Source: Naegleria gruberi (taxonomy: Eukaryota). Taken from it: 64,000 nucleotides of DNA. Numbering within the stretch: position 1 is the first letter of the stretch; each line of letters begins with the position of its first letter. The notes beneath the pieces are model-generated. The model was not told where the DNA came from. It did not search any database and was given only the letters and a program-made list of their open reading frames with translations. A program made the position numbers and the translations under genes. This document shows positions 4,843 through 62,635 of this stretch, piece after piece. Location of the stretch: NCBI GenBank assembly GCA_000004985.1, contig GG738858.1, one strand, 5' to 3'.

Positions 4843-4844
4843 TA

Positions 4845-6225: not shown

Positions 6226-6323
6226 TTTTTTTTGTAAGTTTTAAATTGGGAACTTGGAACAATATTTCACTTGCATTAAAAGTTCAAAATTTTTGTGATT
6301 ATCTCAATAATATAAAATCTTAA

Positions 6324-6394: not shown

Positions 6395-6599
6395 TTACAT
6401 ACCTTACGAAATCTCACCTTAATTCACCTTAATAACAAATCTCACTCAATTCTGGCTAATTTGTATTTATTCAAAGGTATTTATGTTTTTAAAAGCTCCA
6501 TGAACTTGGCTGGAAATTCAATTAAATGTGGAAACTTCTCTATTTGTTTCAGATGTGCATTTTCGAAAATGCATCTTTTTTTTCAAATATGAATCACAA

Positions 6600-7808: not shown

Positions 7809-8056
7809 ACCCAGATTCTAACACTCTTACCTTAATAAATTCCCATCTTTAAATCAGTTAATGTACTTCACTTGCATGAAGATGATCTTTTTGAGAGAGA
7901 GATTTAAAAAGTTCATCAAAACTCAATCTCTGAAATTTTATTTCATCGTAATGAACCAGAAAAAAATATTATTTTTTTAATCATCAAAAAAAAACCTTAA
8001 TAACAAACTCTGTCGGGAACAGATAGCAATTATCATTATTATTGTTATCAATCAAT

Positions 8057-9397: not shown

Positions 9398-9404
9398 ATT
9401 TCTC

Positions 9405-11111: not shown

Positions 11112-11394
11112 TTTTTTCGAATGGTGTTAACTTGCCGAGGATTCAAAAAGGTTGATTAAAAAGGAAACATGGTACATTCTTGTTTTTCTAAAGTCAAATG
11201 TCGTTGTAAACTAAAATTTTTAAACTGTAGTATTTATGTTACAATTTTCCAATGTCAATACAGTATAATGCAATAAAACATCAAGGTCCCAAAATAGAGT
11301 TATATTGTATGCTGAAAACTTCAAAAGATTTCAAAACTCAAACTTCATTCTAAATGAAATCTTTCAATAAACATCCAAATTCAAATACAAAAAA

Positions 11395-12084
11395 ATGAAT
11401 GGTGTTGCTATTACGTAAGTTTTCTCTTTGATCTACTGATATGAAATCTACTATTATCAAAACAATAGAGGATCTGTCGCCTCAATGAGCACAATGATGC
11501 TCTATACTGGAGGAATGGCAACTTGGGGATGTAAGTATTTGCTCTCCTCCAATTAAATTAAATCCATTCTAATAGTTTTGGTTTGGTCCGAGTTCAGTAC
11601 TACCAAGGTCGATAAAGATTCCCTCCTCTGTCAGGGAAGTACAATCCTCAATCTACTTCTCTCCTTCAATATCATTCTAGTTGTTCAGTGTGTTCTAGTC
11701 ATCCTAGCTCTCCTCTCATCAGCTCTCTTCTCCTATAAGAAAGATTCCAAAGCTTTGGTCATTATGAGCTATTTCTTCTCGAGACTTTCCACTTGTTTCG
11801 TCGTCCTGTGCTATAAGGCCATGTTAGGTCTTAACATTGCCATCACAGTTCTTCTCTACTCTAAGAGTTGCAACATGAGTGCTCCTAAAATGTTGGCCAA
11901 ATTGGAGCCTTTCATCATTACTCAATTCGTTCTTCTACCATTCAGTTTGTGTTGTATTGGATGTTGTGTTGCTTGCAATGGACTTGTTGGTGCTCTGAAG
12001 GAGAATGAATATTACAAGTCGAGCAAGAATAAGGATGAAGAAATGATTCAAACCAAACTTCTTGAATATTCCGATGGTCAATAA
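11395..12084 (+). CDS. small four-pass membrane protein (196 aa), 3 exons: 11395-11414, 11469-11530, 11576-12084
   Basis: ATG at 11395. Introns 11415-11468 (GTAAGT..CAATAG) and 11531-11575 (GTAAGT..TAATAG) are phase-consistent. Exon 3 is the track ORF (TTG start). Four hydrophobic segments and a CCxGCC cluster. Confidence 0.45.
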
Positions 12085-19279: not shown

Positions 19280-19351
19280 AGCAAATTGGCGCAGCGGAAG
19301 CGCGATGGGCTCATAACCCATAGGTCCTAGGATCGAAACCTAGATTTGCTA
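19280..19351 (+). tRNA. trnMi-CAU: initiator tRNA-Met (anticodon CAU)
   Basis: AGCAAAT TG GCGC AGCGGAA GCGC G ATGGG CTCATAA CCCAT AGGTC CTAGG ATCGAAA CCTAG ATTTGCT A. Eukaryotic initiator hallmarks are present: A1:U72, three G:C pairs in the anticodon stem, and an A-rich ATCGAAA T-loop. It is followed by a T6 run. Confidence 0.8.
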
Positions 19352-19539
19352 TGTCTTTTTTATTCCCCTTTCCATTAATTTTGGCAATTATACATTTATC
19401 CAAAATATTTCTTTTTTGATCAAAATCCAAGAAACGCGTACTGGATTCGGCTCATTCTACTTCAAGTTGACCACCTTGACATTCATACAAAAAATTAGCC
19501 ACAAATCACCACAAATTTTCCAATCTCATTCACAACATC

Positions 19540-22927: not shown

Positions 22928-25900
22928 ATGACTCGATTATTACTCACGACAGTTGTCATTTGTATTTCAATTTTGTTAGCCCTGACAGGATATATCAGTG
23001 CCGCGGTTACATGCAATGGTGTAGATCAGACAGATCCTTCAACCTGCAGTGGTCATGGTCTATGTAAAAGCAACAATAATTGCGCATGTCTTGACATGTC
23101 ACCTGCCAATACATTAATTTCACAAACTGGAGGATACAATGGCATTCCAACAACATTAAATACCTCACGAACGCTAACTTCATCAAATGGTCAATATCAA
23201 GCATCATTAGATCCATCAACAGGTCGTTTACAAGTCCAAGATGTCACCAACTCGACCATCGTTTATCAAAGTGCAACTTTATTATCAGCAGCTTTATTTG
23301 CACCTTTTGAATTAAGATTATTTGTACCTTCATCTACTACCTGTCAAATATCAATTTATGGAAATAATGTATTAGGTTTGACATTGACAGGTACAGTAAG
23401 TGCAATTTTGCCATGCAGATTGGTCATGAGAAATAATGGAGAATTAGTAATGTACAGTTCCGCTGGGTTTGTTTGGTGGACAACAAATCCATCACTGTCA
23501 ACTGGCACTGAAGATTTAATTTATCAAGGTGTCAATTGCGCTTCACCAACTTGTTATGGAATTTTGGCAGAATCTCCAAATGTTTGTTCTGGAAATGGAA
23601 CTTGCACCTTTACTAATTCATGTTCTTGTAAAAGTGGACATTTCGGAGATTTATGTGATGCTTTTAAATGTTTTGGAAATTTGGCAAATGACACGTTGAA
23701 TGTTTGTTCAGGAAATGGAAATTGCATTTCTCCAAATGTTTGTTCGTGTAATTCTGGATTTTATGGACCTAATTGTGATTTAATCAAGTGTTTTGATGTG
23801 CTCAGTAATGAAACATCGAGTGTTTGTTCTGGACATGGAATTTGTTCGAGTACTGACAATTGCACTTGTGCAAACGGTTATTTGGGGAGTAAATGTAATC
23901 AGTTCGAGTGCTTTGGAATTTCAAATTCAGTAACTTCAGGACTCCAATTGCCATGCTCTGGAAATGGAACATGTACTGGAATAGATCAGTGTGTATGTCA
24001 ATCTGGATTTATTGGAAATGAATGTGAAACATTTAAATGTTCTAATTTTCTCAAGAATGACACTTTGAATGTTTGCTCTGGTAATGGATCATGTATTGCT
24101 CCTAATCAGTGTTCATGTCAATCTGGATTTTTCGGTTCGACATGTGAAGCTTTCAAATGTGGAAATGCATTATTCAATTCGAGTTCAGTATGTTCTGGAA
24201 ATGGATTTTGTAATGCTCCAGATCAGTGCATTTGTAAGAATGGTTATTCTGGATCATTGTGTGATAAATTCACTTGCTTTGGAATTGCCAATGATTTAAC
24301 AAGTGGTGGTCCATTAGCAGTTTGTTCTGGAAATGGAACATGTTCTGCGTTGGACAAGTGCATTTGTAATTCTGGATTTTTGGGTGACAGCTGTGACACT
24401 TTCAAATGTTTTAACAAGTTGAAGAATGATAGTTTGGTTTGTTCTGGTAAGGGAAGTTGCATTCTTCCAGAAACTTGTTCATGTTCGTTGGGATATGAAG
24501 GATTGAATTGTGACGGTTTCAAATGTTTTAACAAATTGAAAAATGATAGTTCAGTATGTTCAGGAAATGGATTATGTACTGATATTAATCAATGCTCGTG
24601 TAAGAATAATTGGTTAGGTCTTGATTGTTCTGTCACTTCTTGCTTTAATTTACTGTCAAATGACACAACTGTTTGTTCTTCGAAAGGAAGTTGCGTTGGA
24701 TTTAATCAATGCTCATGTCAATCTGGATATTTTGGTAGTCTATGTGATGTTAAGAAATGCTTCTCCTACCTGTCAAATGAAACTTCACTTGTCTGTAATG
24801 GACAAGGAACATGTACTGATCTTGACACTTGTTCCTGTAACTCTGGATTCCTTTCGAATGACTGTAGTGTCAATACGAATCCATTTTCCATTTCTTTGAA
24901 CGTTTCTTCACTTTCCATTTATCAAGCTACTTCTTGGAATAGTGTGAAAATTTCCCTGTCAGAAGTTTTAAATGTCAATTTAATTAATTTCAATTGGTAT
25001 TGCTTGGATTGTGTCACCAGGACAAGTTCTAATCTCCAGAAGGGACTTGTGAGTTCTTCACAAATTTTACAATTTAGAACTTCAGATTTAGTGGCAGGAA
25101 CTTTTACATTTATTGCAAATGCAACATTTTCGAATATTTCACCATATCCAAAACGGGTTTCGAATAGTGTTTCATTTAAATTGACTGTATTGGATATTAA
25201 TGTTCCTACTTTGGATGTTTTTGGACTTCCTTCAGTAATTATTTCAAAAATTGATCAACCAATTTCTAGTATAGTTTCTAGCATGACTTTAAATCAAACT
25301 TTGATTCAAAGTTTTATTGGAAAGTGTTCGAATGTTAGCTGTTCAACGCAGGTCACTTATTCTTGGACTATTTCATCTGCCGATAATACATTCAAGGCAT
25401 CTTCTGATGGAATTACTAATATTCTCAACTTGGTTGATTCTACTATTACAATTTCACCTCCAATTCAATTGACCACAAATTTATTGTCACTACTCAATAG
25501 TACTTTGACATTTTCTTTGAGTATTGTCAATCCATTACTGAAATCATTAACTTCATTGATCCAAATCCCAATTGTCTCTCCAGCTTTACCACCAACAGTT
25601 AATATTCCTGGATGGACAAGTGACGTTTACGGAGCTAACACGACCATTTCAAATGTCATGAGAGTTAGCCCAAGTCAAGGTATTTCACTCACTAATTTAT
25701 TCACTATAACTATTGAATCATGGAGTGCTGATTCTAGACTCCTTCCTCTCAAGTATGCTGTTGGATTTTATGATAAAAAGACGAGTAAGCCAATTAGAGT
25801 AACTGAATATTCGAATCAAACCGAAATTTCAATTTATTTACCTTATATGAAGTCATCTAGTTCAAAGAGATCTATTACTGCTGATTTGGAGAGTGTTGAA

Positions 25901-28687
25901 TTGGTTGTGTTTATTATGGATGTGATTGGAAATATCGATTTCAGAAAGTCAGCAACTGTCTACCTGTCACCTTTTAGTGGAACAGCTACTCAATTGACAG
26001 AAAAGATTAATTCATTGACAGGATATGCAATTACTGTTGCCTCCTATGATCAATCCTTGTCATTATTGAGTAGTACAGTTAGTGATTTAACTCTCAGTCT
26101 GATTAAGAACATTACAATTGATCCAAAATTCCCAACAGCTGCTCTTAATAGTTTACAATCTTTGACAGCTGATGTCAATTCATTGACAAGAGAAATTGTT
26201 ATTGAGGTGAATAGCAAATTGAATGGATTTATTACATCTGTGAATGGCAGCTATGCTGATGATAAGAAGAATTACGGATTTGTCAAGAGCAAACTAGCAA
26301 ATTCTGATGTGACTTTGACAGTTTCTGTCAGTTCTAATTTATTGCAAAGTGTATTCGAAAGTGAAGGTACCAAGAATGTTGTCAATCAATTGGTTTCTAC
26401 TATTTTATTTGGAGAAATCGCTAACATGATTCAATCAAGTCAAAAAACACTTAGTTCAGTTTCGTATAGTTCCAATCTAATTGACTTTGCAGTTTCCAGC
26501 TTTATATTGTCCAATCAAGTGAAATCGAATCAAACTCAATCTATCCTTATGGGTAACTACACCAGTGTCTCTATGAATATTTCAAATATCATGAGTCAAT
26601 ATAATGCATTCTCAAAAGATTGTGGAATTTCTCTAATTGTCTATTCCAAGAATACTAACTTTGACAATTCTACTAACAAATTGAAACTTGTTTCAAGTGT
26701 TAACGATTTCAAGTTCAGCGTTGATTCATCTGTTGTGCCTCTCTCAGATTTGACTCAACCAATTATTCTTCAATTTGAGCTTGTGGACGAATTGACTACA
26801 ATTTTAGAATCTTTGAAAAATGAAACTCTGAATGTAACTCAAAATGATCCAACTCAATCCCTCTCAACCAATGAACAAAAGTATTTGTGTAAATATTGGG
26901 ACGAATCAAGTCAATTGTGGAGTTCTAAAGGATGTTCCTTCAAGAGTGTGAATTTACAATCCAAAACAATTGAATGTTCATGTGTTCACACAACCATGTT
27001 TACAACATTCATTGAACAGAACAGTACATTTATCAGTAATCTTAAAGATCAAGTATCAGCTCTCTATTCAGTCCAAATAGCTTTTGGCATCATCTATGCA
27101 AGTGTTGCTACTGTAATTTTAATTGGATTAATTGCATTCAGAAAGGAACAACCAGTTTCCTCCAGATTAATGACTCCATATTTTGGAATGGTTGCCTTGA
27201 TCGCAGAAAGTGTTTTGATTTACATTATTCAGAGAAGTATTTTGGCTGATCAATTGTTGAATTCTTCACCATCTGTATGGGAAACTGGTGATACAGCTGC
27301 TAATATTATTGCCAATGTAGTTGCTATCGTTGTCAATACTTTGAATTTGACAGCTATTTTGAGCTATGTCATTCAAGTGACAAGATTCCAATTAATGAAA
27401 TACTTGTATCAAATCTTGTCTTCCAGTAGAGGAAATGAACAAAAGAGTGAACATACAATTAATGTTATCAGATTTTTGACAGCTCCAAGTTTGTCAAATT
27501 CAATTCTTTCAGCATTTGCTGGTGTGAATGTAATTTATTGGTTATTGTGGGTAATTTTGAGAAGAACCAATGCAATTGAACCAGCCACCTATACTTACAT
27601 TGTTTCCATTTCGTATACAGTGTGCATTCTTGTATTCAGTGTCTTGATTACTATTGTGGCTGTTTTAGATTTTATTGGCTCTACAAAGAAACATTTGGAC
27701 ATGAATACAAAGAGAAGAACAGCTATGGATCACTTAGTTGAGAATCCAAGCTCTAGTTTCAAGAAGGATAAGAAGAAATTCGTTGGAAATCCAGCCAAAA
27801 TTTTCAGAGATTGGCTTATTACATTGGACGGTCCTCTCTACTTTAGAATGGAAATGATCTTGTACATTATTTGCTTTATTTTCTTAGTTTTGAATCAAGG
27901 TATTGGATTGAGTAGTTTACCATACAGATATGAAAGTGTTGATTCATTTAGAAAAGCTCTCCTTTCTGATGGAATTTCGTTTATCTTTGAAGTTTTATAT
28001 GTAGTGAGCTATATTTTCGTATTTGGTGGATATGCACTGATTATCACACTCAAATACAAGTATCAAAAGTGGAAATATCAACAAGCACTCAAGGCAGCAG
28101 CTACAGAACCTCAAAATGAGGAAATTTGGATTGATGAGGCAGTTGATGAAATTCTCTCATCCCAAGAAGGAACAAGTCTATTCGAAACTTTTTGTGTCAA
28201 GGAATTCTCATGTGAAAATCTCTATCTCTATCAAGATTTACATGCCAATAAGGAAATTATTGATGGAAACAATTTCAAGGACCTTCCAAGATTCATGTCC
28301 TTTGTTTTCCACAACTATGTCAAAGTGGGAGCTCCATCAGAAGTCAACCTACCTTCCAGTAGTAGAAACTCATTCCTATTCCTCTTCAGATCAGCACTCT
28401 CTCAAAAAGAAACCTTCTCCTCCAGCCAACAAATTAAATTGGATTCGAATCTGTTGCGAGATTTCGAAGCAGTAGAAAAGGAAATTCACACCGAAAATAT
28501 TCCAATTGTCGAGTTGAATGCAACAAATATTAAGGATTGCTTTGAAAATTTGGATAGAAATGTTTTGATTAATATTGGAGATACCTTCTCTCGATTTGTT
28601 TACACTCCGGAATATAAGATTTTTAAAAAGGCAAAGGAATTGCAAAATGCAATGATTCAAAAGGCAAATATTGTGTATGGATTGTAA
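22928..28687 (+). CDS. adhesion-GPCR-like giant receptor: signal peptide, bulb-type lectin, about 20 EGF-like repeats, Ser/Thr-rich stalk, GPS motif, 7TM, C-terminal RGS domain (1919 aa)
   Basis: ATG at 22928 with a hydrophobic leader. Lectin signature (CRLVMRNNGELVMYSS). Repeated C-x-C-x-x-G-[FY]-x-G-x-x-C EGF units. GPS consensus C..W......W...GC....(17)..C-S-C-V-H-T-T-M-F. Seven hydrophobic helices at about aa 1360-1660. RGS signature (FETFCVKEFSCENLYLYQDL). Single exon. Confidence 0.75.
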   Translation: MTRLLLTTVVICISILLALTGYISAAVTCNGVDQTDPSTCSGHGLCKSNNNCACLDMSPANTLISQTGGYNGIPTTLNTSRTLTSSNGQYQASLDPSTGRLQVQDVTNSTIVYQSATLLSAALFAPFELRLFVPSSTTCQISIYGNNVLGLTLTGTVSAILPCRLVMRNNGELVMYSSAGFVWWTTNPSLSTGTEDLIYQGVNCASPTCYGILAESPNVCSGNGTCTFTNSCSCKSGHFGDLCDAFKCFGNLANDTLNVCSGNGNCISPNVCSCNSGFYGPNCDLIKCFDVLSNETSSVCSGHGICSSTDNCTCANGYLGSKCNQFECFGISNSVTSGLQLPCSGNGTCTGIDQCVCQSGFIGNECETFKCSNFLKNDTLNVCSGNGSCIAPNQCSCQSGFFGSTCEAFKCGNALFNSSSVCSGNGFCNAPDQCICKNGYSGSLCDKFTCFGIANDLTSGGPLAVCSGNGTCSALDKCICNSGFLGDSCDTFKCFNKLKNDSLVCSGKGSCILPETCSCSLGYEGLNCDGFKCFNKLKNDSSVCSGNGLCTDINQCSCKNNWLGLDCSVTSCFNLLSNDTTVCSSKGSCVGFNQCSCQSGYFGSLCDVKKCFSYLSNETSLVCNGQGTCTDLDTCSCNSGFLSNDCSVNTNPFSISLNVSSLSIYQATSWNSVKISLSEVLNVNLINFNWYCLDCVTRTSSNLQKGLVSSSQILQFRTSDLVAGTFTFIANATFSNISPYPKRVSNSVSFKLTVLDINVPTLDVFGLPSVIISKIDQPISSIVSSMTLNQTLIQSFIGKCSNVSCSTQVTYSWTISSADNTFKASSDGITNILNLVDSTITISPPIQLTTNLLSLLNSTLTFSLSIVNPLLKSLTSLIQIPIVSPALPPTVNIPGWTSDVYGANTTISNVMRVSPSQGISLTNLFTITIESWSADSRLLPLKYAVGFYDKKTSKPIRVTEYSNQTEISIYLPYMKSSSSKRSITADLESVELVVFIMDVIGNIDFRKSATVYLSPFSGTATQLTEKINSLTGYAITVASYDQSLSLLSSTVSDLTLSLIKNITIDPKFPTAALNSLQSLTADVNSLTREIVIEVNSKLNGFITSVNGSYADDKKNYGFVKSKLANSDVTLTVSVSSNLLQSVFESEGTKNVVNQLVSTILFGEIANMIQSSQKTLSSVSYSSNLIDFAVSSFILSNQVKSNQTQSILMGNYTSVSMNISNIMSQYNAFSKDCGISLIVYSKNTNFDNSTNKLKLVSSVNDFKFSVDSSVVPLSDLTQPIILQFELVDELTTILESLKNETLNVTQNDPTQSLSTNEQKYLCKYWDESSQLWSSKGCSFKSVNLQSKTIECSCVHTTMFTTFIEQNSTFISNLKDQVSALYSVQIAFGIIYASVATVILIGLIAFRKEQPVSSRLMTPYFGMVALIAESVLIYIIQRSILADQLLNSSPSVWETGDTAANIIANVVAIVVNTLNLTAILSYVIQVTRFQLMKYLYQILSSSRGNEQKSEHTINVIRFLTAPSLSNSILSAFAGVNVIYWLLWVILRRTNAIEPATYTYIVSISYTVCILVFSVLITIVAVLDFIGSTKKHLDMNTKRRTAMDHLVENPSSSFKKDKKKFVGNPAKIFRDWLITLDGPLYFRMEMILYIICFIFLVLNQGIGLSSLPYRYESVDSFRKALLSDGISFIFEVLYVVSYIFVFGGYALIITLKYKYQKWKYQQALKAAATEPQNEEIWIDEAVDEILSSQEGTSLFETFCVKEFSCENLYLYQDLHANKEIIDGNNFKDLPRFMSFVFHNYVKVGAPSEVNLPSSSRNSFLFLFRSALSQKETFSSSQQIKLDSNLLRDFEAVEKEIHTENIPIVELNATNIKDCFENLDRNVLINIGDTFSRFVYTPEYKIFKKAKELQNAMIQKANIVYGL

Positions 28688-28823
28688 ATAAACTAAATGA
28701 AACTAATCTCTTTAGAATGTGTTGAAATATGAGATGAAAATTATTCGAAATAAAAGATTGAAATACGTGTTTCTTACAAAATACGTCTATGATTTTTAAA
28801 ATCAGAAAAATATTCAGTTTCGA

Positions 28824-30515
28824 ATGGAAGGAAACTTTTCGAATCTTCCTTCCGAAGTTTTATTCTTCAAAATTCTTCCACATTTCGAATACAAGTGGAT
28901 TTTGAATGTGGGAAGATTAGTTTGCAAGGAATGGAATGAAAATTACAAATCAATTCCAACTTTTTACTTTCCGATAAAATATTGTGGAAACGAGACGAAA
29001 CTAAAAAATTTGATAAAGCATTCTGATGAATTAGCAAAAGTAACATCTCTTTATTTAGAAAGAAAAGAAAATCACCTAATTTCGAATAATGAATTAGAAA
29101 GTGAATTTGTGTTAAAATTGAAAAATTTGAAAGAATTGAATATTACACGTTATAATTGTTCATTCTTGTTGGAAGATTTTGCAAAATTGAAAAAATTGGA
29201 AGAAATTAATTTAACTTTGATAACATTCGAACAAGTTACTGAGATTGTGAAATATCTGTCACATGCCAAATCATTTTCTTTTTGTCATATTTCACGATTG
29301 AATGAATTATTTGTTATTCATGATTCAATACCTTTGAAAAAACTAACTGTTAGTCCATCGTCATCCAATGAGCTAATTTCAATATTAGAAACTAAACCTG
29401 TCAAAAGTCTAACTGAACTTTATTGTTTCAATTGTGGTCAATTATCATTGAAAAATATTGGATCACTTGGTAATTTACAGAAATTAGACATTTCTGGGAC
29501 CAGTTTCAAAGATGAAGAATCCTTGAAATATTTATTGAATTTGACAGAATTGGATGCAAGTAGTACTAACATAAATGGAAATGGACTTTCCAATTTAGGA
29601 AAATTACAAAATTTGAAAGTTTTAAAACTTGCAAGTAATCATATTGAAAATGAAGGAGCTAATTACTTGAATTTACTTTCAAATTTATCAAAATTAGATC
29701 TTTCCAATAATTGTATTAGCGATGAAGGTTTACAAAATTTTCCCAAACTTTACAAATTAGAATATTTAAATTTATCCAACAACAAAATTAAAATTATGGG
29801 AGCAAATTATCTTTCCCAAATGGAAAATTTAATTTTTCTTCACTTGCCCAAAAATTGTATTGAAGAGGAAGGTTTGAGAAATTTTGGAAATTTGAAATTT
29901 TTAAAGGAATTATTTTTGGGTTCTAATTTCATTGGAAGTGGAATTCGTCATCTTGCCAAATGTCATTCTTTAGAGAGATTATATGTCAATTCTAATTTAA
30001 TCAACGATCAGCAAGCAGTTGATGAATTTTGTGGAAATTTGAATCTAAGAGAATTGGAAATTTTCAAGAATGATTTAACTGAAACCTGCTGTGAAAGTAT
30101 TTCAAAATTAAGCAATTTGAAAAAGTTGAATATTTCAGAAAATCCAATTGGTAATGGAATTTCCAATTTGGGAAAATTACAAATTTCAAAATTGGAAGCA
30201 AAAAATTGTAAAATTACAGATGAAGGAATTATTGAATTTTTCAAATCCTTCCAAAGAAGTGAAAAAAGTGAAAAATTGGATCTTTTTCTGGAAGATAATG
30301 AATTTACAAATATTTCAATAATTCAATTTTTGGAAATAGCTGACAAACTCAATAGTCTTTCGATTTCTTATTCACAGAATTTTAATTTAGAAGAAACTCA
30401 AAGATTACATTACAAATTGAAAAATTTGAATATCCAAGGTGAACCCATCCAAATCTCGAAAAGGAAGGAGATGCCTTTTGAATTCAATTGGTTTTTTAAA
30501 TTTTTTAATGATTAA
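28824..30515 (+). CDS. F-box / RNI-type leucine-rich-repeat protein, 563 aa
   Basis: The N-terminal region (LPSEVLFFKILPHFEYKWILNVGRLVCKEW) is F-box-like. It is followed by about 15 LRRs of the LxxLxLSNNxIxDEG type. Confidence 0.6.
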   Translation: MEGNFSNLPSEVLFFKILPHFEYKWILNVGRLVCKEWNENYKSIPTFYFPIKYCGNETKLKNLIKHSDELAKVTSLYLERKENHLISNNELESEFVLKLKNLKELNITRYNCSFLLEDFAKLKKLEEINLTLITFEQVTEIVKYLSHAKSFSFCHISRLNELFVIHDSIPLKKLTVSPSSSNELISILETKPVKSLTELYCFNCGQLSLKNIGSLGNLQKLDISGTSFKDEESLKYLLNLTELDASSTNINGNGLSNLGKLQNLKVLKLASNHIENEGANYLNLLSNLSKLDLSNNCISDEGLQNFPKLYKLEYLNLSNNKIKIMGANYLSQMENLIFLHLPKNCIEEEGLRNFGNLKFLKELFLGSNFIGSGIRHLAKCHSLERLYVNSNLINDQQAVDEFCGNLNLRELEIFKNDLTETCCESISKLSNLKKLNISENPIGNGISNLGKLQISKLEAKNCKITDEGIIEFFKSFQRSEKSEKLDLFLEDNEFTNISIIQFLEIADKLNSLSISYSQNFNLEETQRLHYKLKNLNIQGEPIQISKRKEMPFEFNWFFKFFND

Positions 30516-30580
30516 AAAAATATTCTTTTTTTTACAATTTGTGAATTTTATTTAAATTTTGAATGAAAACCAATTTTGGT

Positions 30581-32059
30581 TTACAACACGAATGAAAGAC
30601 AAATGAAAAGCAAAGCAAAGACAAATGGCAAGCTAGTGGTAATGAAAGTTGCTTCACTTGCATAGAAAACCAAAGAAACTGAAACAGCAACTTTAGGTGA
30701 TGGTGAAGTCAAATTTCTACCAACAACTGGAAGTGTCAAGTTTGTAGGAATTTGAGGTTGACCAGTGACATCTAGACCAGAAAGAGTTGTCAATGCAGAA
30801 ACGTCAGCCATTCCAGCATCAGTCCAAGCTTTCTTATAACACTTAATCATATTAGCATATTGCTTTGAACACAACTTGGTAATGACAGTTGAATTGGCAT
30901 CAACAGGTTGATATGAAATAGTTGATGTCATGCCACTTGTCAATTCATCAACTCCATTATTATAGGCACAAGCATAAAAATCTTCTCTAAAACCATTACA
31001 TGGTTGAACACAAGTTCCATTGAATGGACTAGCACTAGACAAACCACCACATCCACATTTCAAATCAGATGAGCTAGGACATGCTTTGGCAGTTGAACAT
31101 GTGACAACTGTCGATGAACATTTAAGATTTTCACAATAATTATTGAAACAGTCATCATTCTTATCACATGCTTCACCATCAAGAAGATGCCATCTTCTAA
31201 TACACTTATTCTTAGCACATCTCATTTGAAGAATTGGCAATTTGTAACAATCTGAAGGAGTTTCACAAAATTCACCATAGACAGATGGCTTTTGACAGGT
31301 CTTGGCAGCACTATCAATATTTTCCTTTCTACAATACAATCCATCTGCACAAACAGTTGAAACTGGAAGTCCAGAACAATTTTGACCTAATTGTAAAATT
31401 GTTGGTTTGTAACAAACGTTACTGATACAAGTCAACCCAGAATTTTCTTTACAAAAAACACGAACGCCACCTGAAATTGTTTCACAAGGACCTCCTTCAT
31501 CGCTATTATATGCCATCTTGAGACAGGCGCCTTGATAACAGTAGAAACCTGTTGCACAATCGTTTACAATATTTGTTGTTTCGTTCAATGATTTTTCCAA
31601 GCAGGCACCACCTTCAACATTGACAACTGGCAGGACTTTGAAACTGACACATTGATTATTAACACAATTAGTGTAAGCAGAAGCACTTCCAAAACTACCA
31701 ACGCAATTTTCTCTATGAGTGCAATAATCACCTAAAATTCTAGTTCTACGATATTCACAAGTTTGAGTTCTGGCAGCACAACCCAACCAATTGGCTTGAC
31801 AAGCAGAAGAACTGCCTGCACAGGACATACCAACGTAATTTGGAAGGATAGTATTAGGAATTGAAATACAGGTACGATTTCCTGTAAAACTGAAACCATT
31901 AATTGAACCAGTTGGGCAAACGAGTGAGGAAGCTTTTGATGAGGCAGCATCAGCAGCTGTAATACCCGAGACATAGTTGGAGGTACATTGCTGGCCAACT
32001 ACTGTGGATAGCATCAGATAGAGAGATGCTAATGTGAAGAGGAGAAGGTATGGTTTCAT
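30581..32059 (-). CDS. secreted Cys-rich protein with C-terminal hydrophobic (GPI-anchor-like) tail, 492 aa
   Basis: ATG at 32059. N-terminal signal peptide (MKPYLLLFTLASLYLMLSTVVG), more than 60 Cys in EGF/knottin-like spacings, and a hydrophobic C-terminus. Confidence 0.5.
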   Translation of the reverse strand: MKPYLLLFTLASLYLMLSTVVGQQCTSNYVSGITAADAASSKASSLVCPTGSINGFSFTGNRTCISIPNTILPNYVGMSCAGSSSACQANWLGCAARTQTCEYRRTRILGDYCTHRENCVGSFGSASAYTNCVNNQCVSFKVLPVVNVEGGACLEKSLNETTNIVNDCATGFYCYQGACLKMAYNSDEGGPCETISGGVRVFCKENSGLTCISNVCYKPTILQLGQNCSGLPVSTVCADGLYCRKENIDSAAKTCQKPSVYGEFCETPSDCYKLPILQMRCAKNKCIRRWHLLDGEACDKNDDCFNNYCENLKCSSTVVTCSTAKACPSSSDLKCGCGGLSSASPFNGTCVQPCNGFREDFYACAYNNGVDELTSGMTSTISYQPVDANSTVITKLCSKQYANMIKCYKKAWTDAGMADVSALTTLSGLDVTGQPQIPTNLTLPVVGRNLTSPSPKVAVSVSLVFYASEATFITTSLPFVFALLFICLSFVL

Positions 32060-32443
32060 GTGTTGATTGTTTTTTTTGAGTGTGGATGACTTTCGAATAA
32101 TGTTGTGATATCTTGTTTAAGAGCTTTCTAGCTCCTTGGTGTGCGATGAGGTTATTTGGCATCTTGGTTCAATGTTTGGAAGTTTGTTGACAGAATGGGT
32201 TGTGGTAACTTGTTTCTCTATTGAGAATATCGCGGCCATCAATGTTTGTCAAACTGTTACTAAACTTGCTCAAGAAACAAGATTGGAAGAATTTTTCAAA
32301 ATTGTTGTAGAACACTTGTCTGTCATCGTTTTTGATTTGGTATTGTATTTAACGAGATTCTATTGGTGATTATCCAAACGACATGTATGGAAGATATTTT
32401 TGTGGGTTTACAATTATTGATTTACAATTGAAATTTACAGTTT

Positions 32444-34072
32444 TTATTTTCTCTTTTTCTTTTGTTTAATTTCTTGTTTGAATTTCATAAATGGTTCTGC
32501 CATTGATTCGCAAACACTCTTTTGCAATTCATCAAACAAGTCGTCTTCTAAAATGCTAGAAGATGAGAATTCATCCAATCTTGTTTTAACTCGTTCTTGA
32601 AGAGCAGTGCTTGTTTTGAATGGTGTTTCTCCATTTACATCAATGAATTCAGTAAATATCTTGAAAGCAACTTCGTATTTGTTTCTTTCCAATTCCTCAA
32701 CTTTCTCAATTTCCTCAATATCGCTAATTTTCGTATTCTTGCTCTTTTGTTCAGCAACACCTCTCAAGTAGTGGGCTTCCTCACAGAGTTCCTTGTAAGA
32801 GTGGCAATTGTCCAACAAGGTAAATGAATCCAAACAATTTTCTCTATCACAGAAAGCTCTGAATAAAGCATTATACTTATCACTTCCAACAGTTTCCATT
32901 ATCATAATATGAGCAGCTTTTCGGAGTTTTCTTGTGCTTGTAACTTCAGTAGTCAATGCCATGGCAAAGATTAAAATAACTATTGGAACACTAACAATTA
33001 CACCAAACAAAACTAAACCCATGTTCACAGCGCTTGCCATCCTTAAATACTCTTTCTTCTCATTTGCAAGTTTGACAATTTCTTTTTGTACTTTGATTAA
33101 GAAAAGTTGGGTTATAGTATCTGCTGAATAGTATTGGAATGATTTTCTTTTTTCCCTTGCAGATATCATGTCTCCAATAGCCACATAATCCATAACTAGA
33201 TCATTCAAAGTAGTTATTTGCGTATTCAAATATTCGGATGGTTTCACAGTTCCATTAGGCAAAGTTAGTGCAAGCTCTACTAGGGTGGTATTGGCAAGGG
33301 CTCGCTTTATATAATATTCCCCAACCAGACTCTGGTTTCCAGTGGCTGCAGCTACTCTTACAGTACAGTCAATATCGTGATAGAGTTGCAAGTAGTCTGT
33401 TCTCTTGAGGAGCATATAGGTTTCCTTCTGGGCATCCAATTTGAAAGCATTTCCAACAATTACAGCCACAGCTATAAAAGCAGCAATATTGATAAGCATA
33501 CCAAACAGTGAGAGAATTCTGACAAGATTCAGTTCTATTATACCACAACATGTAGGAATACGAAATGTCACCGAAGAGACGGTAGACTTGCCCGACTTGG
33601 CTGTTGTCTTACTGAATATTGATTCAACTGTAGGTTTTTGTGGTTGAGCAAACGAGACTCTTTTATCACCTGGTGTTTGTGGAGTATTGTTTTGGGCTCT
33701 ACTCATTCTATATTGTTGTTGTTGTGGTTTAATTGAAGATAAGGTTAATGGTTTAGTGACAAATCTTCTAGCAAAGTGTACCACAATACTATCGGCATCA
33801 CTACAGGCATCGTCATCTTCGTCGTCTTCATCCTCAATTTTAGTTTGTTCCTCATTGTGAGTATTGACAGTGATACAAACTTTCTCTTGAGCTTGTTCTT
33901 CGTCAATCTTTTTCAAATCCTTTAGTTCAATAGATGTTGAAGTAGAAGGATTGTCTTGATGATTCTGAATGGTTTCAATTGTTTGTGATGGGGGTGTTGA
34001 AGATGGATGATCACCTTCAGGCGACGAAGTAGAAGATAACGAAGAAGACATTTTTTGTGTGTTGGTATTCAT
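32444..34072 (-). CDS. two-TM receptor-like RGS protein (S/T-rich N-term, TM1, ectodomain of about 150 aa, TM2, cytosolic RGS domain), 542 aa
   Basis: ATG at 34072. TM segments are LFGMLINIAAFIAVAVIV and LVLFGVIVSVPIVILIFAMAL. RGS-domain signature (FRAFCDRENCLDSFTLLD...KYEVAFKIFTEFI...LFDELQKSV). Confidence 0.65.
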   Translation of the reverse strand: MNTNTQKMSSSLSSTSSPEGDHPSSTPPSQTIETIQNHQDNPSTSTSIELKDLKKIDEEQAQEKVCITVNTHNEEQTKIEDEDDEDDDACSDADSIVVHFARRFVTKPLTLSSIKPQQQQYRMSRAQNNTPQTPGDKRVSFAQPQKPTVESIFSKTTAKSGKSTVSSVTFRIPTCCGIIELNLVRILSLFGMLINIAAFIAVAVIVGNAFKLDAQKETYMLLKRTDYLQLYHDIDCTVRVAAATGNQSLVGEYYIKRALANTTLVELALTLPNGTVKPSEYLNTQITTLNDLVMDYVAIGDMISAREKRKSFQYYSADTITQLFLIKVQKEIVKLANEKKEYLRMASAVNMGLVLFGVIVSVPIVILIFAMALTTEVTSTRKLRKAAHIMIMETVGSDKYNALFRAFCDRENCLDSFTLLDNCHSYKELCEEAHYLRGVAEQKSKNTKISDIEEIEKVEELERNKYEVAFKIFTEFIDVNGETPFKTSTALQERVKTRLDEFSSSSILEDDLFDELQKSVCESMAEPFMKFKQEIKQKKKRK

Positions 34073-34585
34073 CTATCTCCCACCTCCAAATGTCCCCTCT
34101 CTCTACGTAGTTAGATCCAAACATCACTCGGCATTGGGATTTGGTTTCCTTATATTGAATTTGCCTTTTTTAAACGTTTTGAGCTTAATTTTGTGAACCA
34201 TCCGTTCAACTAGCAAATCTCATATTTAGGAACTAGATGCTAATAACACAACAGGAAAGTGTTGCTCAAATAATATCACAAGATACGGTATACAGTAGAT
34301 TCTACTCGGAAAGACATTTGCTTTTCTTCTGCAGACTAACCGACATTTGTATTCAACCCACACTGTAGATAGAAATTATAATGAAAGTTAACCTAGTCTT
34401 CATCATGTATTAATTGTTAGGTTGTATAATAAGATGTGAAGATCATCAATTAAATTTTAATTCATGCAAAGATACGTGCCCAAATTGAGGCTTTGCAATT
34501 AACGGTTTTTTTAAGCAGCAAGAATTCACCCTCATTCATCTTGGCGCCTTTTTTTTAAAATTGTAATAAAACAAATTTTATTTAT

Positions 34586-37300
34586 TTAAAAGAAGAAGAA
34601 AATGATCATCATTGCAATCACCAAGTATGAGGCAGTGAAGTTGTGAATGGATGAGGTATGACTAAGGACAGGTTCTGGAGGAATTTCAACAGAGGAAACT
34701 TGCAAATTATATCCACTAATTAAGAGAGCAAAGTTTTGAGAACCAACATTCTTCTCCGATGATCTGATATTAATAATAATCGATGAGGATGAATTGGAGG
34801 TGTTTGGAGGAATGTTAATGGTGAGTGATTCGACATTGTTTCTATCATCAATTAGGGAGGAATCTTGAATGTTTCCATAGTTACATTGTTGATTACCGTA
34901 GCAGAGAGTATGAATTGGTGAGGAGGAGGAATCATCCTTGATGGAAACTGAGAGATCTAAATTGTTGATTAGCACTTTGGCTGAGTTGGTGGATGAGCTA
35001 ACAGGTGTACCTTTCAAATCAAACCAGGTGAGTGTAACTTTCAATGGATTGGAGCTTGCCAAATTATTGGTCAACTTCATTGTGATGGTAATGTTTGAGG
35101 CAACATTGATTTTCTGTCTATTGATTGTGAATAGATCTGGATTGGAATCCTTATCTGAAAACTTCATTGTATTGGCAATATTCACTCTACCGTAACCTGT
35201 GTACTTGTTTGGAGTTTTCTCTTTGGATAGATCACGATAATTGTTTTCGTTTGTGAAAACACCATCCAACTTGACTGTACCCATCAACTTCTCTCCAGAG
35301 TGAATAACAAAACCCTTTACAAGCATGCCACTCAATGTTTGATTTGGATTCTTATTAATCAAATCAAGGTTGACCAATCTTTGCTTGCTATTTTGAAGGA
35401 AGTATTCTCTAACCAGAGCAGAAACACCTGAGATAGCTGGACAGGCCATACTAGTTCCTGTCTTCTGAGTTAGCCCAGTTGAATCACAGAATGGAATATA
35501 ACTTCTAGCACTCCAAATTTTCACTCCAGGAGCTACAATGTCAGGCTTAAATCTATTATCAAATGTTGGACCTCTTGCTGAAAAATAGCCCAAATTGTCA
35601 TGATTGTAAAGTGTTGTATTGATATTTGGTTCATATCTGGTGTATTCATCAGATGTGGCATAGGCAGCACCAACTGAGATACAATTCTTGGCAGTAGATG
35701 GAGCTAGTTCAAAAATTGTTACAATTTACCAAGTGAACAATATACTTACAAATAACAGACTTTTCCTGTCCATAGTAACCACTATTACCAGCAGCAAAGA
35801 CAACTAACATTTCATCATTGGCATTGGTGAATTCATCAATTTGTGCAGAGAGTGTTTCATAAGTGTTACCAAGTTCACAACATCTTAAACCATATTGTTG
35901 AAGACAATACTCATCCTTCACTGGTTTGGAAAGATTGGATTTGGCTTCATAGCAATCACAATCAAATTGGCAATCTAAATTATTGGTATTTCCCCAACTG
36001 TTGCTGGAAATTCTTGCACCACTGGCATAAGCCCTAATCAAGTAAGATGTCATGTTGGAAACTGAGAAGAAAAGTGTAATACCAGAATCAATCATGTGAA
36101 TTTTAGCATCTTTGGCAATACCCATATCATTATCAATTCCTGAAGTTGAACTTGGTTGACCAGCAACTATTATTAAGGTAAAATAACAAAGAATGAAAAC
36201 AACAACTTACTAATTCCAGAACAGTGAGTACCATGACCATTGGCATCGTAAAAATCTCCTGTTGTACCTCTCTCGTAAAGTACAACCTTTCTATTTTTGG
36301 TATTCAAAGTAGAATAATCTTCATTTGGAGAAGAGAAGAAACAATGACTGTAATCAAGACCTGAATCAACAATATTCACAATCTCACCCTTTCCAGTTAC
36401 ACCATTATCCCAAGCAAATCTCGAAACATTAACCTTACGATTGTATTGAACAACATTATTGGAGCCGTACAATAATAATGATTGAGAAAATTCTCTTTCA
36501 ACATAGTCTACATCTTCATTATCTAAAATGTTGCTCATTAAGAAATCTGACATGTGACTCATCAAGGCACTCCTTTTACCATTGTTATTCCACAAGCTTG
36601 CATCTCCATCAACCAAGGAAATTGAAAACATTCTTCCTCTTTCTTCAATCAAAATTGAAGAACTTGCAAGAATTTCATTAATACTCTCAGAACTTCTTCT
36701 CACAGAACTTTCAATCAATTGAGTAGCAAACTCATGATTGAATTTGGTATTCATCTTGGAAAGGAAGAGTGGCAATTTTTCTTCAAATTCACTATTCATT
36801 ACAACTCTGAGTTTGGAAAATCTCAAACTGTCCATAGAAAATTGAGGAAACAAAATTCTCTTCTCATTGCTAACTCTTTCAATTCTGTAAATGTATTGTC
36901 TGTAGGAGGATTCGCTTTTAATTTCATCAATTCTTTGTAATGAGAGTCTAGTTCTAAACACTCTGTTATCTGTTCCACTGACAGTTTCTAATCTTTCGGT
37001 ACGAATGTTGCTGCTACTTGGACCGAAAACAATTCTATTTAATTGGTCTAAATGAAAATCGGAAAGGATGACATTATCATGAATTTTAATGTCTACAAGA
37101 AGTTTTGCATTATTCGAAAGTGTTCTTGCAGCTGATGATGATGGTTTATCCAACAAATTTAAACCATCCAATGTATGAGGAAATCTGCTATGAGCAACAA
37201 CTGAGAATGCCAAACCGAGGAGGAATAGGCATACCACCAATATTGTTCGCTGCATTATTTTTTTGTAAAGTATCGAATAATTGCATAGTAGACATGTCAT
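34586..37300 (-). CDS. subtilisin-like serine protease (peptidase S8) with C-terminal extension of about 330 aa and hydrophobic tail (874 aa), 3 exons: 37300-36211, 36166-35750, 35703-34586
   Basis: Catalytic triad D (VNIVDSGLD), H (HGTHCSGI|IAG across intron 1) and S (GTSMACP). SNSWG and AAGNSG motifs are present. Intron 1 is 36167-36210 (GTAAGT..AATAG, phase 1) and intron 2 is 35704-35749 (GTAAGT..AACTAG, phase 1). The signal-peptide-like MQRTILVVCLFLLGLAFS follows a possible upstream ATG. Confidence 0.75.
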
Positions 37301-37491
37301 TCAATAAGATTTATCACCAAGTTTAAATACCGAATCTATTGATGTTGGTCAAATTTCGAAAAGGAGATTAGATAACGTTCAAGGAGTAAGAAACTTAACA
37401 AAGAATGCAGATACCAATATAAAAATTATTCTAAACCTGAACCCGACATTCCATACATGGAAGTTGACAAAAGAATGAAAGTGGCGATAAG

Positions 37492-39006
37492 ATGATATGG
37501 AATTGCCGTCATGGAATCGGTATACCTTCAACATCTCAAGACCAATCCTTTAATCGTTCCCATTGTCATTCGTCTACTTTCGATATCTTTCAAAAAATGT
37601 CTCAAGACCATCACCACCATGCTTCTGAGCTACAAATAATCGTATCTCCAGAGACCACTACCAACACTCTAACAAGTGATTCCCACAATCCAATGATAAC
37701 GAGTCACCAAACTTCCAATACAGAATCATCAACTCAACCTCCACTTAAAAAGAAGACAACTTTCGCATCACGTGATGAACACATAGCTACAACCATAGCC
37801 ATTCAAGAAGATAAAACAGAAAGTACAAGTATTTTCAGTAAGACTACTAGTGCTCAATCACTTTCATCTCAAACTAAACTCAGAATTAAAACATGTTGTG
37901 GAATAATCAAGTTGAATACTATGAGATTATTGTCAGTGGTGGCCATGTTTGTCAATTCCATTGCTTTTATTGCTATTGCTGCTGTTGTAATTAATTCGTA
38001 TACGTTACAGACTTCGGTTGATACTGATCTGTTATTGAATAGAGGTGATTTAGTTTCGTTTACTGAAAAAACCGAATGTGCTGTTAAACTGACAGCTTAT
38101 GAAAATAGAACAGCCTATACAGAATCATATTATGTTAATTATCAGAATGTTACTAATCTACTTTCCACATTGAAACAAGTTTTACCTTCAAAGATTTATA
38201 CTCTGAATGGAGTTGACGTTCCAACTAAGAAAATGGATGATGAAATTCTGACACTTGTTGGCAATGGTTATGGAGGTCAAGCTCTGAATATTCTCAAGTC
38301 ATCTGAATATATCAGTCAACAAGTTGCTTACGATACTTTCTTACAATCCATGTTGGATTATTCGAATGATATGGCCGAATCTAAGAATTCTTATATTTTC
38401 ATTTCTAGTATTGTAAACTTGGTTTTGGTTGTAATTGCCTTGGTAGTTGTCGTGCCAACTGTCTTTGTTGTCTTTGCAATGGCCATCAAGAAGGAAGGAA
38501 ACACATCAAAAAAGTTAAAGAAGGCAACTGCATTCATGTTGTTAGACACAATGGAAGATGAAGTAATGAAATCAAAATTCAAAGAGTTTTGTAAGATGGA
38601 AGGTCACGGAATTGACCTTTTCCATTTTATTGAGAAAACTGTTAGCTATACTCATTTGTGTGAAAAACAAAATGAAATGATGGATAAACTTGCCAAGAAT
38701 AAGGGAGATCCAAAGGCAGTAAGAGATTTTGAAAAGGAAAAGTACATTCTTGCCTTTGAAATATTTGCCGAATATTTGGATGAAGATATTGGTGAGTATC
38801 CAATTCTTGTCAGTGGTGCATTGCATGAATGTTTGAAAAATAGAATTGACGACTTTTCAATTAATGAAGCAGAGACCTATCTCAAGGAAAATCTCTTTGA
38901 AGATATTCAAAAGGAAGTTGCAATGACTTCGCTCAATGATTTGCACTTCAAATTTAAACAATTCTTGATGGCTAGTAAGAAGCTTCAAGTCAAAACACAA
39001 CAATAA
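37492..39006 (+). CDS. two-TM receptor-like RGS protein, paralog of 32444-34072 in inverted orientation, 504 aa
   Basis: Same architecture: KTCCGIIKLNTMRLLSVVAMFVNSIAFIAIAAVVI (TM1), ectodomain, IFISSIVNLVLVVIALVVVVPTVFVVFAMAI (TM2), RGS-like C-terminus (KFKEFCKMEGHGIDLFHFIE...KYILAFEIFAEYL...LFEDIQKEV). The start could instead be the internal ATG (MSQDHHHH). Confidence 0.65.
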   Translation: MIWNCRHGIGIPSTSQDQSFNRSHCHSSTFDIFQKMSQDHHHHASELQIIVSPETTTNTLTSDSHNPMITSHQTSNTESSTQPPLKKKTTFASRDEHIATTIAIQEDKTESTSIFSKTTSAQSLSSQTKLRIKTCCGIIKLNTMRLLSVVAMFVNSIAFIAIAAVVINSYTLQTSVDTDLLLNRGDLVSFTEKTECAVKLTAYENRTAYTESYYVNYQNVTNLLSTLKQVLPSKIYTLNGVDVPTKKMDDEILTLVGNGYGGQALNILKSSEYISQQVAYDTFLQSMLDYSNDMAESKNSYIFISSIVNLVLVVIALVVVVPTVFVVFAMAIKKEGNTSKKLKKATAFMLLDTMEDEVMKSKFKEFCKMEGHGIDLFHFIEKTVSYTHLCEKQNEMMDKLAKNKGDPKAVRDFEKEKYILAFEIFAEYLDEDIGEYPILVSGALHECLKNRIDDFSINEAETYLKENLFEDIQKEVAMTSLNDLHFKFKQFLMASKKLQVKTQQ

Positions 39007-62634: not shown

Positions 62635-62635
62635 A

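Follow-up and report, generated by a model that had tools for sequence, protein, structure and literature searches.

In a 64,000-nucleotide stretch of Naegleria gruberi contig GG738858.1 (the whole of which is referred to here as the 'window'), three genes encoding membrane-anchored proteins with regulator of G-protein signalling (RGS) domains lie within 16 kb, along with genes for a subtilase (S8) and a Cys-rich secreted protein. We propose that this grouping probably unites three components with different histories: P1, a very large receptor of the already known seven-transmembrane (7TM)-RGS class; P2 and P3, an ancient pair of RGS-related proteins, each with two transmembrane (2-TM) segments and a 'sensor' ectodomain; and the subtilase and Cys-rich genes, conserved neighbours of that pair, with P1 lying nearby by chance. 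The four genes that a preliminary description of this DNA had outlined (P1, P2, P3 and the subtilase) are all present where it had placed them (Table 1). The lasting value of the locus, as we see it, is the recognition that its '2-TM sensor-like' RGS proteins carry a bacterial-type sensor domain.

The paired two-TM RGS genes

P2 and P3 share 32% identity over 459 aligned columns (BLASTP, E 2e-51), and hydropathy gives each of them two transmembrane (TM) segments, in keeping with their first description as sensor-like two-TM paralogues; the three different RGS architectures that had been proposed for the cluster reduce to two, 7TM-RGS once and 2TM-sensor-RGS twice. In a rough neighbour-joining tree the P2 and P3 clades are sisters, and since each holds members from N. 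gruberi, N. lovaniensis and N. fowleri, the duplication that gave rise to them predates the divergence of the three species. On the evidence of sequence, P2 and P3 are thus true paralogues, an ancient inverted duplicate pair, and a recent date for the local expansion suggested earlier does not fit a duplication of this age, nor a P1 that comes from a different family.

The product of P2 is a 100% match to an annotated N. gruberi 'RGS-domain-containing protein' of 542 aa, and that of P3 corresponds to XP_002679293 (NAEGRDRAFT_57561; UniRef entry D2V994). With the Pfam RGS profile P2 scores 26.6 bits at full length and 33.6 bits for its C-terminal domain alone (cutoff 23.9), and a Foldseek search with this domain returned RGS17, RGS8 and RGS4 at prob 1.0, with SNX13 among the fold matches. 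Full-length P3 matched no Pfam family at E<=0.1, and its assignment follows from full-length paralogy with P2 together with the UniRef name of D2V994. Searching solved structures with the P2 and P3 C-termini (phmmer) gave only noise; a profile of the P2/P3 clade had the RGS domain of Axin as its weak best match (E 0.045).

Orthologues of P3 are P0010 in N. lovaniensis and, in N. fowleri, the interval 19296-20502 of VFQX01000058.1 (L002). The annotation divides the N. fowleri orthologue into two genes (320 and 195 aa). Its two tblastn pieces lie in different frames and overlap by 5 nt (19939-19943), which points either to a pseudogene or to an assembly error that shifts the frame. A TCCG motif stands just before TM1 in both proteins (P2 aa 174-177, 33553-33542; P3 aa 134-137, 37891-37902), is invariant in the P2/P3 clade and is also the consensus of the wider sensor-RGS family; as a guess, it may be a candidate site for juxtamembrane palmitoylation.

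The sensor ectodomain and its relatives

In the AlphaFold2 (AF2) model of P2, the structured part of the protein (aa 180-542) has pLDDT values mostly of 63-94 per 10-residue block, with dips to 53-56. TM1 is predicted to continue into an extracellular helix, four helices (208-244, 248-270, 285-309 and 312-352) stand between the TM segments, and the last of these is unbroken (H312-396), running through TM2 up to the start of the RGS domain. Submitted to Foldseek, the ectodomain matched the ligand-binding domains of MCP2201, Tar, Vc1313, QseE and Adeh_2942 (5xua, 1lih, 8bsb, 4k0d and 9m08) at prob 0.92-1.0 and TMt 0.48-0.64, consistent with a TM1/four-helix bundle/TM2 topology. The orientation of both proteins in the membrane is supported by N-glycosylation sequons, which concentrate in the ectodomain, and by a basic stretch that follows TM2.

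We searched 1.84 billion representative proteins (HMMER) with a profile of the TM1-ectodomain-TM2 module; 141 of them matched at E<=1e-3, including 47 at E<=1e-10. RGS domains were recognised in 57 of the 141 by an RGS HMM for which family members had supplied part of the sequences, and Pfam RGS matched 32 of the top 50; all 22 named clusters of the RGS family that were looked up belong to N. gruberi (at least 13 paralogues), N. lovaniensis, N. fowleri or Willaertia magna. The other matches carry the ectodomain, often with its flanking TM helices, in mostly bacterial-type signalling proteins whose outputs are HisKA/HATPase/REC/Hpt, GGDEF/EAL, PAS, MCPsignal or cyclase domains (HMMER E 1e-3 to ~1e-9), the named ones being from gammaproteobacterial symbionts, a Sedimentisphaerales bacterium and an unclassified bacterium. 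A word-indexed homologue search with the P2/P3 alignment brought in no new members, so that the exhaustive HMMER search was needed. One ectodomain homologue (among P0059-P0130) bears an adenylate/guanylate cyclase domain, and its host may be either bacterial or Naegleria; if it is from Naegleria (~80-100 cyclases), the same sensor module would feed two eukaryotic outputs.

With the TM segments removed, an hhalign comparison of the Naegleria and bacterial ectodomains gave 99.6% (E 5e-24, score 132), as against scores of 8-16 for its controls (20 column-shuffled and one reversed), although the test is not independent, because the bacterial set came from the Naegleria profile, and the HMMER E-values are to be taken as the primary evidence. 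The idea that the similarity is due to TM helices or to helical composition was rejected on this TM-free score. Positions common to the Naegleria and bacterial ectodomains, picked out by eye, include R-G, AAxTGD, W/Y..Y, LxP and G....A...L-S..Y.

Neither P2 nor P3 matched Pfam 4HB_MCP_1 or CHASE3, and the bacterial homologues did so weakly and in few cases (CHASE3 in 4/28, 4HB_MCP_1 in 1/28); their ectodomain profile had no significant relative among solved structures and corresponded to no NCBIfam family. Judged from these profile comparisons, the ectodomain of P2 and P3, which the preliminary description had called sensor-like, is homologous to bacterial periplasmic sensors and related to 4HB_MCP / CHASE3, but it belongs to an unnamed family.

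The sensor-RGS family, so far confined to Naegleria and Willaertia, appears to be undescribed: no account of the architecture was found in the literature open to full-text search, a body of work that does not take in Anantharaman et al. 2011. Such proteins fall among the '79 additional' RGS proteins of N. fowleri in Bosch et al. (PMC9283941). Sensor-RGS paralogues were also seen to share N. gruberi scaffolds of 417575, 747259 and 401612 bp (P0163/P0048, P0165/P0032 and P0030/P0059), one such pair having the consecutive UniProt accessions D2VH57 and D2VH58, which suggests further local duplicate pairs like P2/P3 and growth of the family by local duplication.

Gα-contact residues

The RGS boxes were aligned with RGS4 and ~45 relatives, and the positions equivalent to S85, E87, N88, N128, D163 and R167 of RGS4 were compared. 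P1 and its homologues P0006-P0008 keep all six (SxEN, EVN, DxxxRF), whereas P2 reads D87, S88 and K128 and P3 reads D87, L88 and L128, neither of which is the pattern of a catalytically competent R4-like RGS domain; the equivalents of D163 and R167 are kept in both as E/D and K. Most members of the wider 2-TM family retain SxENF, VNI and DTHxRF.

Within the P2 clade, the N88 position is S in P2 and K, K, Y and Q in its orthologues, and the N128 position is K in P2 and P, P, K and T in its orthologues; in the P3 clade, L and V occupy both positions. Such variability among orthologues points to relaxed constraint precisely at the positions that contact the Gα switches. As both N88 and N128 have been lost, full GTPase-activating protein (GAP) activity of P2 and P3 is doubtful, and we infer that they carry RGS-homology domains with weak or no GAP activity. 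The G-protein 'shut-off' role originally suggested for all three proteins is therefore plausible for P1, in which the catalytic Asn and the other Gα contacts are canonical, and is questionable for P2 and P3, from which both conserved Asn residues are gone.

P1, a 7TM-RGS receptor

A single polypeptide in P1 combines seven TM helices with an RGS box at the C-terminus, which makes P1 a new member of the published 7TM-RGS class; the receptor-fused RGS protein of the preliminary description is thus borne out, with an RGS box that keeps the canonical GAP residues. As Bosch et al. had already described 7TM-RGS proteins in Naegleria, it is not a new class, and P1 adds just one more member to it. N. 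fowleri has 28 such proteins, several of them with GPS, epidermal growth factor (EGF) repeats and lectin domains, plus 79 further RGS proteins (PMC9283941), the number of RGS genes in N. gruberi is 229 (PMC3971589), and TM-fused RGS proteins are present in most lineages (de Mendoza et al., PMC3971589); on these counts soluble RGS proteins, which had been supposed to be the norm, are not so in N. gruberi. Isolated RGS domains of N. fowleri 7TM-RGS proteins speed GTP hydrolysis on specific, partly self-activating Gα (Bosch, Jeck & Siderovski, J Biol Chem 2022, PMC9283941), GAP activity and binding to Gα-GDP-AlF4 having been measured only for four N. fowleri RGS domains (PMC9283941).

The RGS box of P1 scores 29.1 bits with Pfam PF00615 (cutoff 23.9) and aligns to the structures of RGS16, RGS2 and RGS4 (phmmer). 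In the ectodomain, Pfam EGF_2 matches 11 stretches (E 6.7e-48), and EGF_Teneurin and EGF_TEN also match. The GPS motif, when its region is scanned alone, scores 27.1 bits against a cutoff of 22.5, and its putative cleavage site reads HT/T where the consensus is HL/T; upstream of it, in the putative GAIN region, pLDDT in the AF2 model was <50, the alignment there consisting of a single sequence. Foldseek matched the AF2 model made for the last 770 residues to G-protein-coupled receptors (GPCRs) of classes A, B1 and D (prob 0.95-0.99, TMt 0.36-0.5), with no discrimination among the classes for the seven-helix bundle, and no Pfam 7tm profile, 7tm_2 included, matched P1 at E<=0.1. Of the profiles expected for the locus at the outset, RGS in P1 and P2, GPS in P1 and Peptidase_S8 (below) were accordingly recovered, and RGS in P3 and 7tm_2 in P1 were not.

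The N. lovaniensis orthologue of P1 is collinear with it over 4512-11449 of PYSW02000021.1 (L005), at 43-51% identity (tblastn). It is split there into three adjacent gene models (406, 1260 and 483 aa; 4476-11452), with the tblastn alignment collinear throughout, and the middle model has a Pfam REJ match that is missing from N. gruberi P1. A REJ or lectin domain in N. gruberi P1 found no support (no Pfam match at E<=1), and an impression that aa 60-200 resemble bulb-type lectins was dropped. A search with the C-terminal 670 aa found no 100%-identical protein, and look-ups of the exact products of P1 (1919 aa), P3 and P0008 all came back empty, which says little in itself; for P1, the public N. 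gruberi annotation may have a gene model other than the single long open reading frame (ORF), or none.

Conservation and linkage of the genes

The divergent pair of subtilase and P3 is kept in N. gruberi, N. fowleri (L002) and N. lovaniensis (L004), the intergenic distance being 191 bp in N. gruberi and roughly 550 bp in the other two species. In N. fowleri, the orthologues of P2, the Cys-rich gene, the subtilase and P3 all lie, together with a glycosyltransferase gene, inside ~10.5 kb, with the subtilase/P3 block inverted relative to N. gruberi and placed on the opposite side of the block formed by P2 and the Cys-rich gene. The adjacency of P2 and the Cys-rich gene is found in two species, N. 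gruberi and N. fowleri. The N. lovaniensis orthologue of P2 is on a separate contig from the subtilase and P3 and is without the Cys-rich gene, and that of P1 is on a third contig, where no other gene of the window lies close to it; a P1 orthologue is likewise absent from the P2/S8/P3 locus of N. fowleri. The flanking genes (leucine-rich repeat (LRR), RCC1-like and kinase) are not conserved around the subtilase and P3. Synteny between the kinase/DUF4116 gene (19540-22521) and the DUF4116 genes beside the subtilase in N. lovaniensis was considered and rejected (no tblastn match at 1e-8). Linkage of all the members is not conserved across the species, and the position of P1 next to the P2/S8/P3 block is specific to N. 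gruberi.

As the genomes of N. fowleri and N. lovaniensis are mostly collinear (PMC9928731), the two species together provide roughly one comparison. Genome-wide, N. gruberi and N. fowleri show low synteny (bioRxiv 10.1101/2020.01.16.908186), for which reason the retained pairs, subtilase with P3 and P2 with the Cys-rich gene, carry some weight.

To set the grouping against chance, the 229 RGS genes of N. gruberi were taken to be placed uniformly in ~41 Mb, with P2/P3 counted as one duplication. Any given locus would then have a 4% probability of an RGS neighbour within 3.8 kb, with ~9 such cases expected genome-wide, and the genome would be expected to hold ~20 unrelated RGS pairs within 16 kb and ~0.9 independent triplets. 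Because its proximity fits chance among 229 RGS genes, the position of P1 is no evidence of function, and the three-gene RGS grouping looks to be largely the result of duplication plus chance. What is left of the clustered 'island' as first described is an ancient paralogue pair with two conserved neighbours, its synteny upheld for the subtilase and P3 in three species and for P2 and the Cys-rich gene in two; the linkage of P1, and that of P2 in N. lovaniensis, did not hold, and the placement of P1 shows no excess over expectation.

Subtilase and Cys-rich neighbour

The two introns of the subtilase gene (36167-36210, 44 nt; 35704-35749, 46 nt) follow GTAAGT...AG, and their removal rebuilds HGTHCSG-IIAG and AAGNSG...GTSMACP. 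The spliced product scores 152.4 bits with Pfam Peptidase_S8, and the Asp (DSG), His (HGTHCSG), oxyanion Asn (AAGNSG) and Ser (GTSMACP), as read from the sequence, are intact. By hydropathy, its sole C-terminal hydrophobic segment is the last ~15 residues; since this segment is terminal and without a cytosolic tail, it is better seen as a glycosylphosphatidylinositol (GPI)-attachment signal than as a TM anchor. The three exons and the S8 assignment of the 'membrane-anchored' protease are thereby confirmed, with the nature of the anchor revised. Its orthologues lie at 15201-18441 of L002 (N. fowleri) and 6218-9438 of L004 (N. lovaniensis).

The Cys-rich protein has no Pfam match, and its N. fowleri orthologue (L002 12243-13752) adjoins that of P2. 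From their terminal signals, the subtilase and the Cys-rich protein are probably both GPI-anchored surface proteins.

Setting of the locus

The window is AT-rich (~34% GC), with densely packed genes and few introns. Towards its end (57159-64000) the GC content drops to 18-31% with strong GC skew, and the TTTGGG arrays found there sit inside direct repeats spaced ~2-5.5 kb apart (e.g. 57453-58105, which matches 62915-63566; also 61172-61471). The telomeric repeat proposed for N. gruberi is TTTGGG (PMC3622300), which would place the four-gene locus 18-34 kb from subtelomeric repeats, and 57159-64000 is probably a subtelomere with interstitial telomere-like arrays.

Other genes of the window include one for a T4 Rnl2-type RNA ligase (6528-7808, +; RNA_ligase and T4_Rnl2_C), which adjoins a divergent tubulin-family gene (8042-9397, +), as well as genes for actin (1539-2738, -) and a Wntless-like membrane protein (14144-15739); the kinase encoded at 19540-22521 has both DUF4116 and Sel1 repeats. 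The window was found to hold no Gα gene or other G-protein component.

Table 1. Features of the RGS locus and of the repeat-rich end of the window (positions are those of the window).
Feature	Position	Strand	Description
P1	22928-28687	+	Intronless single 1919-aa ORF; signal peptide / EGF array / GPS / 7TM / RGS
P1 EGF-like array	23009-24649	+	10 CSGxGxC units by motif count, aa 40-544 and onward
P1 GPS motif	26885-27004	+	aa 1320-1359, ...CSCVHT/TMF; Pfam PF01825
P1 seven-transmembrane bundle	27077-28048	+	aa 1384-1707; seven hydrophobic segments by hydropathy; AF2 helices
P1 RGS box	28142-28642	+	aa 1739-1905; ~55-aa insert before helix 7
Cys-rich secreted protein	30581-32059	-	492 aa; signal peptide and extreme C-terminal hydrophobic tail, GPI-signal-like (hydropathy)
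P2	32444-34072	-	542 aa; disordered N-terminus, TCCG, TM1, 4-helix ectodomain, TM2, RGS-homology domain
P2 RGS-homology domain	32477-32881	-	aa 398-532
P2 ectodomain	33017-33451	-	aa 208-352; four-helix-bundle sensor; 3 N-glycosylation sequons
Subtilase gene	34586-37300	-	Exons 36211-37300, 35750-36166, 34586-35703; signal peptide; 874 aa
Intergenic region, divergent S8/P3	37301-37491	.	191 bp; candidate shared promoter, judged from the arrangement
P3	37492-39006	+	504 aa; TM1 / 4-helix ectodomain 37993-38418 / TM2 / RGS-homology 38554-38982
(TTTGGG)n arrays	57159-57176, 59871-60175, 61805-62234, 63800-64000		Sequence; the last reaches the window end

Discussion

We suggest a model in which the two kinds of RGS protein at this locus would act in different ways. 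P1 is predicted to join a large ectodomain, EGF-rich and glycosylated, by way of a GPS motif to a GPCR-like bundle of seven helices, with a canonical RGS box in the cytosol; by analogy with AtRGS1 of Arabidopsis and with the assays of N. fowleri 7TM-RGS proteins, it may serve as a membrane-resident GAP for self-activating Gα, and binding at the ectodomain would change the activity or location of the receptor. The sensor-RGS proteins would be 2-TM receptors, probably dimeric, and, to judge from the P2 model and from bacterial four-helix-bundle (4HB) sensors, a ligand bound to the bundle could displace the helix that crosses TM2 and so reposition the RGS domain.

Most members of the sensor-RGS family, going by their retention of the canonical contacts, are probably ligand-regulated receptor GAPs. 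P2 and P3, as a derived branch, may have kept both sensor and fold whilst losing the catalytic interface, and would then contribute weak or non-catalytic Gα binding, a scaffold role, or an interaction with another partner. The subtilase is predicted to be an active surface protease, probably GPI-anchored, and co-transcription with P3 from the shared 191-bp intergenic region is plausible from the arrangement of the two genes. Taken to its full extent, the idea would be that a bacterially derived CHASE3-like sensor was joined to RGS in a sizeable family of receptor GAPs gated by ligands (~57 clusters at 50% identity, 13 or more genes in N. gruberi), wiring prokaryote-style chemosensing to G proteins without a GPCR, with P2 and P3 as a non-catalytic branch and P3 co-transcribed with the adjoining subtilase; in this complete form we put it forward tentatively, as a possibility more apt to fail than to hold.

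The grouping might instead be read as an integrated module, in which P1, P2, P3 and the subtilase are co-regulated and the protease processes the receptor ectodomains, for example near the GPS or the sensor domain. A location in the membrane or on the cell surface is predicted for every encoded protein, the divergent pair of subtilase and P3 is kept in three species, and P2, the Cys-rich gene, the subtilase and P3 have stayed within 10 kb in N. fowleri despite generally low synteny. Yet P1 comes from a different family than P2/P3, has an unlinked orthologue in N. lovaniensis and is missing from the locus in N. fowleri; the N. lovaniensis P2 orthologue lies apart from the subtilase/P3 pair and the Cys-rich gene; divergent pairs can survive rearrangement passively in compact genomes; and the collinear genomes of N. 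fowleri and N. lovaniensis amount to about one comparison. GPS cleavage in adhesion GPCRs is, moreover, autocatalytic and needs no protease, and we regard such a module as very unlikely. A narrower link, in which the subtilase and P3 (and perhaps P2 and the Cys-rich gene) share a bidirectional promoter and the protease, for instance, makes the ligand of the sensor, is favoured by the divergent arrangement and short intergenic regions in all three species, with flanking LRR, RCC1-like and kinase genes that are not conserved. This comparison, however, spans two effectively independent lineages, the unrelated-looking pair of P2 and the Cys-rich gene is conserved as well, which suggests a non-negligible background of retention, and the RGS domain of P3 is the most degenerate of the three; a link of this sort seems to us rather unlikely, if less so than the full module.

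It is also conceivable, though we doubt it, that P2 and P3 are fully active receptor GAPs, in which substitutions at both Asn positions are tolerated or compensated. The RGS fold, the acidic residue at D163 and the basic residue at R167 are all retained, the ORFs are intact and conserved in several species, and Ser replaces N128 in some RGS proteins that are active. On the other side, N88 and N128 are gone together, their replacements vary among orthologues in a manner that indicates relaxed constraint at the switch contacts, SxEN and VNI are strict in most paralogues, and the best match of the clade profile among solved structures, albeit a weak one (E 0.045), is the non-GAP RGS domain of Axin. 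We consequently keep to the reading of separate histories, in which P2 and P3 form an Asn-less branch and P1 is a chance neighbour.

Several points weigh against this reading. That P2, the Cys-rich gene, the subtilase and P3 have kept to a 10-kb span in N. fowleri, against a background of low synteny, could reflect more functional coupling than we allow, and the uniform placement used in the chance estimate is untrue for families that expand in tandem. Some functional RGS proteins tolerate substitution of N128, so that loss of GAP activity in P2 and P3 is not certain, and the numbering of the contacts depends on an RGS4 reference sequence verified at its six key residues, with an alignment to RGS16 agreeing in the case of P1. 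The alignments behind the AF2 models are shallow (6 and 4 sequences) and the mean pLDDT values are 63 and 60, all of the Foldseek E-values are weak (>=0.04), as the queries were long multi-domain models, and the bacterial sequences given to hhalign had been both selected with and pre-aligned to the Naegleria profile.

The 7TM-RGS 'receptor GAPs' are thought to represent an early form of control over self-activating G proteins, and in the pathogen N. fowleri they are candidate drug targets. The sensor-RGS family would add a clear example of how a prokaryotic sensor module has been put to new use, with a eukaryotic output; the predicted rigid joining of sensor to RGS domain through TM2 would, if true, show how G proteins might come under extracellular control in the absence of a GPCR. 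Within the family, canonical and Asn-less RGS domains offer a natural comparison for GAP activity, and the ectodomains are open to ligand screening, as with bacterial chemoreceptors.

Comparison with known systems

In its layout (EGF-like array, GPS, seven TM helices and C-terminal RGS box), P1 resembles Nf 7TM RGS1-4 from the same genus, and the closest N. fowleri relative that we found is P0008, which has Pfam GPS and RGS matches. It departs from these in being very large (1919 aa) and in the ~55-aa insert within its RGS box. AtRGS1 has essentially no ectodomain, whereas P1 has ~1350 extracellular residues with EGF and GPS, and no sequence relationship between the 7TM parts of the two was detected. 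What they share is a seven-TM region followed by a cytosolic RGS domain, and a presumed role as GAP for self-activating Gα (PMC9283941, PMC3971589).

The large EGF ectodomain of P1, with a GPS right before TM1, also recalls the adhesion GPCRs (class B2) and the REJ-GPS receptors of polycystin-1 type, a link to the latter being the REJ domain on which the N. lovaniensis orthologue scores. Unlike the adhesion GPCRs, P1 has no 7tm_2 match, reads HT/T rather than HL/T at the putative cleavage site, and has an RGS (GAP) output in place of G-protein activation.

For P2 and P3 two comparisons apply. As RGS-homology domains that keep the fold without the R4-type asparagines, they are like those of Axin, GRK2, SNX13 and the rgRGS of RhoGEFs, to which they have no specific sequence relationship and whose context is unrelated to that of a membrane sensor. 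As receptors, with TM1, a four-helix bundle and TM2, and with helix 4 predicted to run on through TM2, they are like the bacterial 2-TM sensors (Tar-type / 4HB_MCP receptors, CHASE3-type kinases and diguanylate cyclases); unlike these, they have no HAMP, DHp or MCP signalling domain, and the output, in a eukaryotic host, is a eukaryotic RGS domain.

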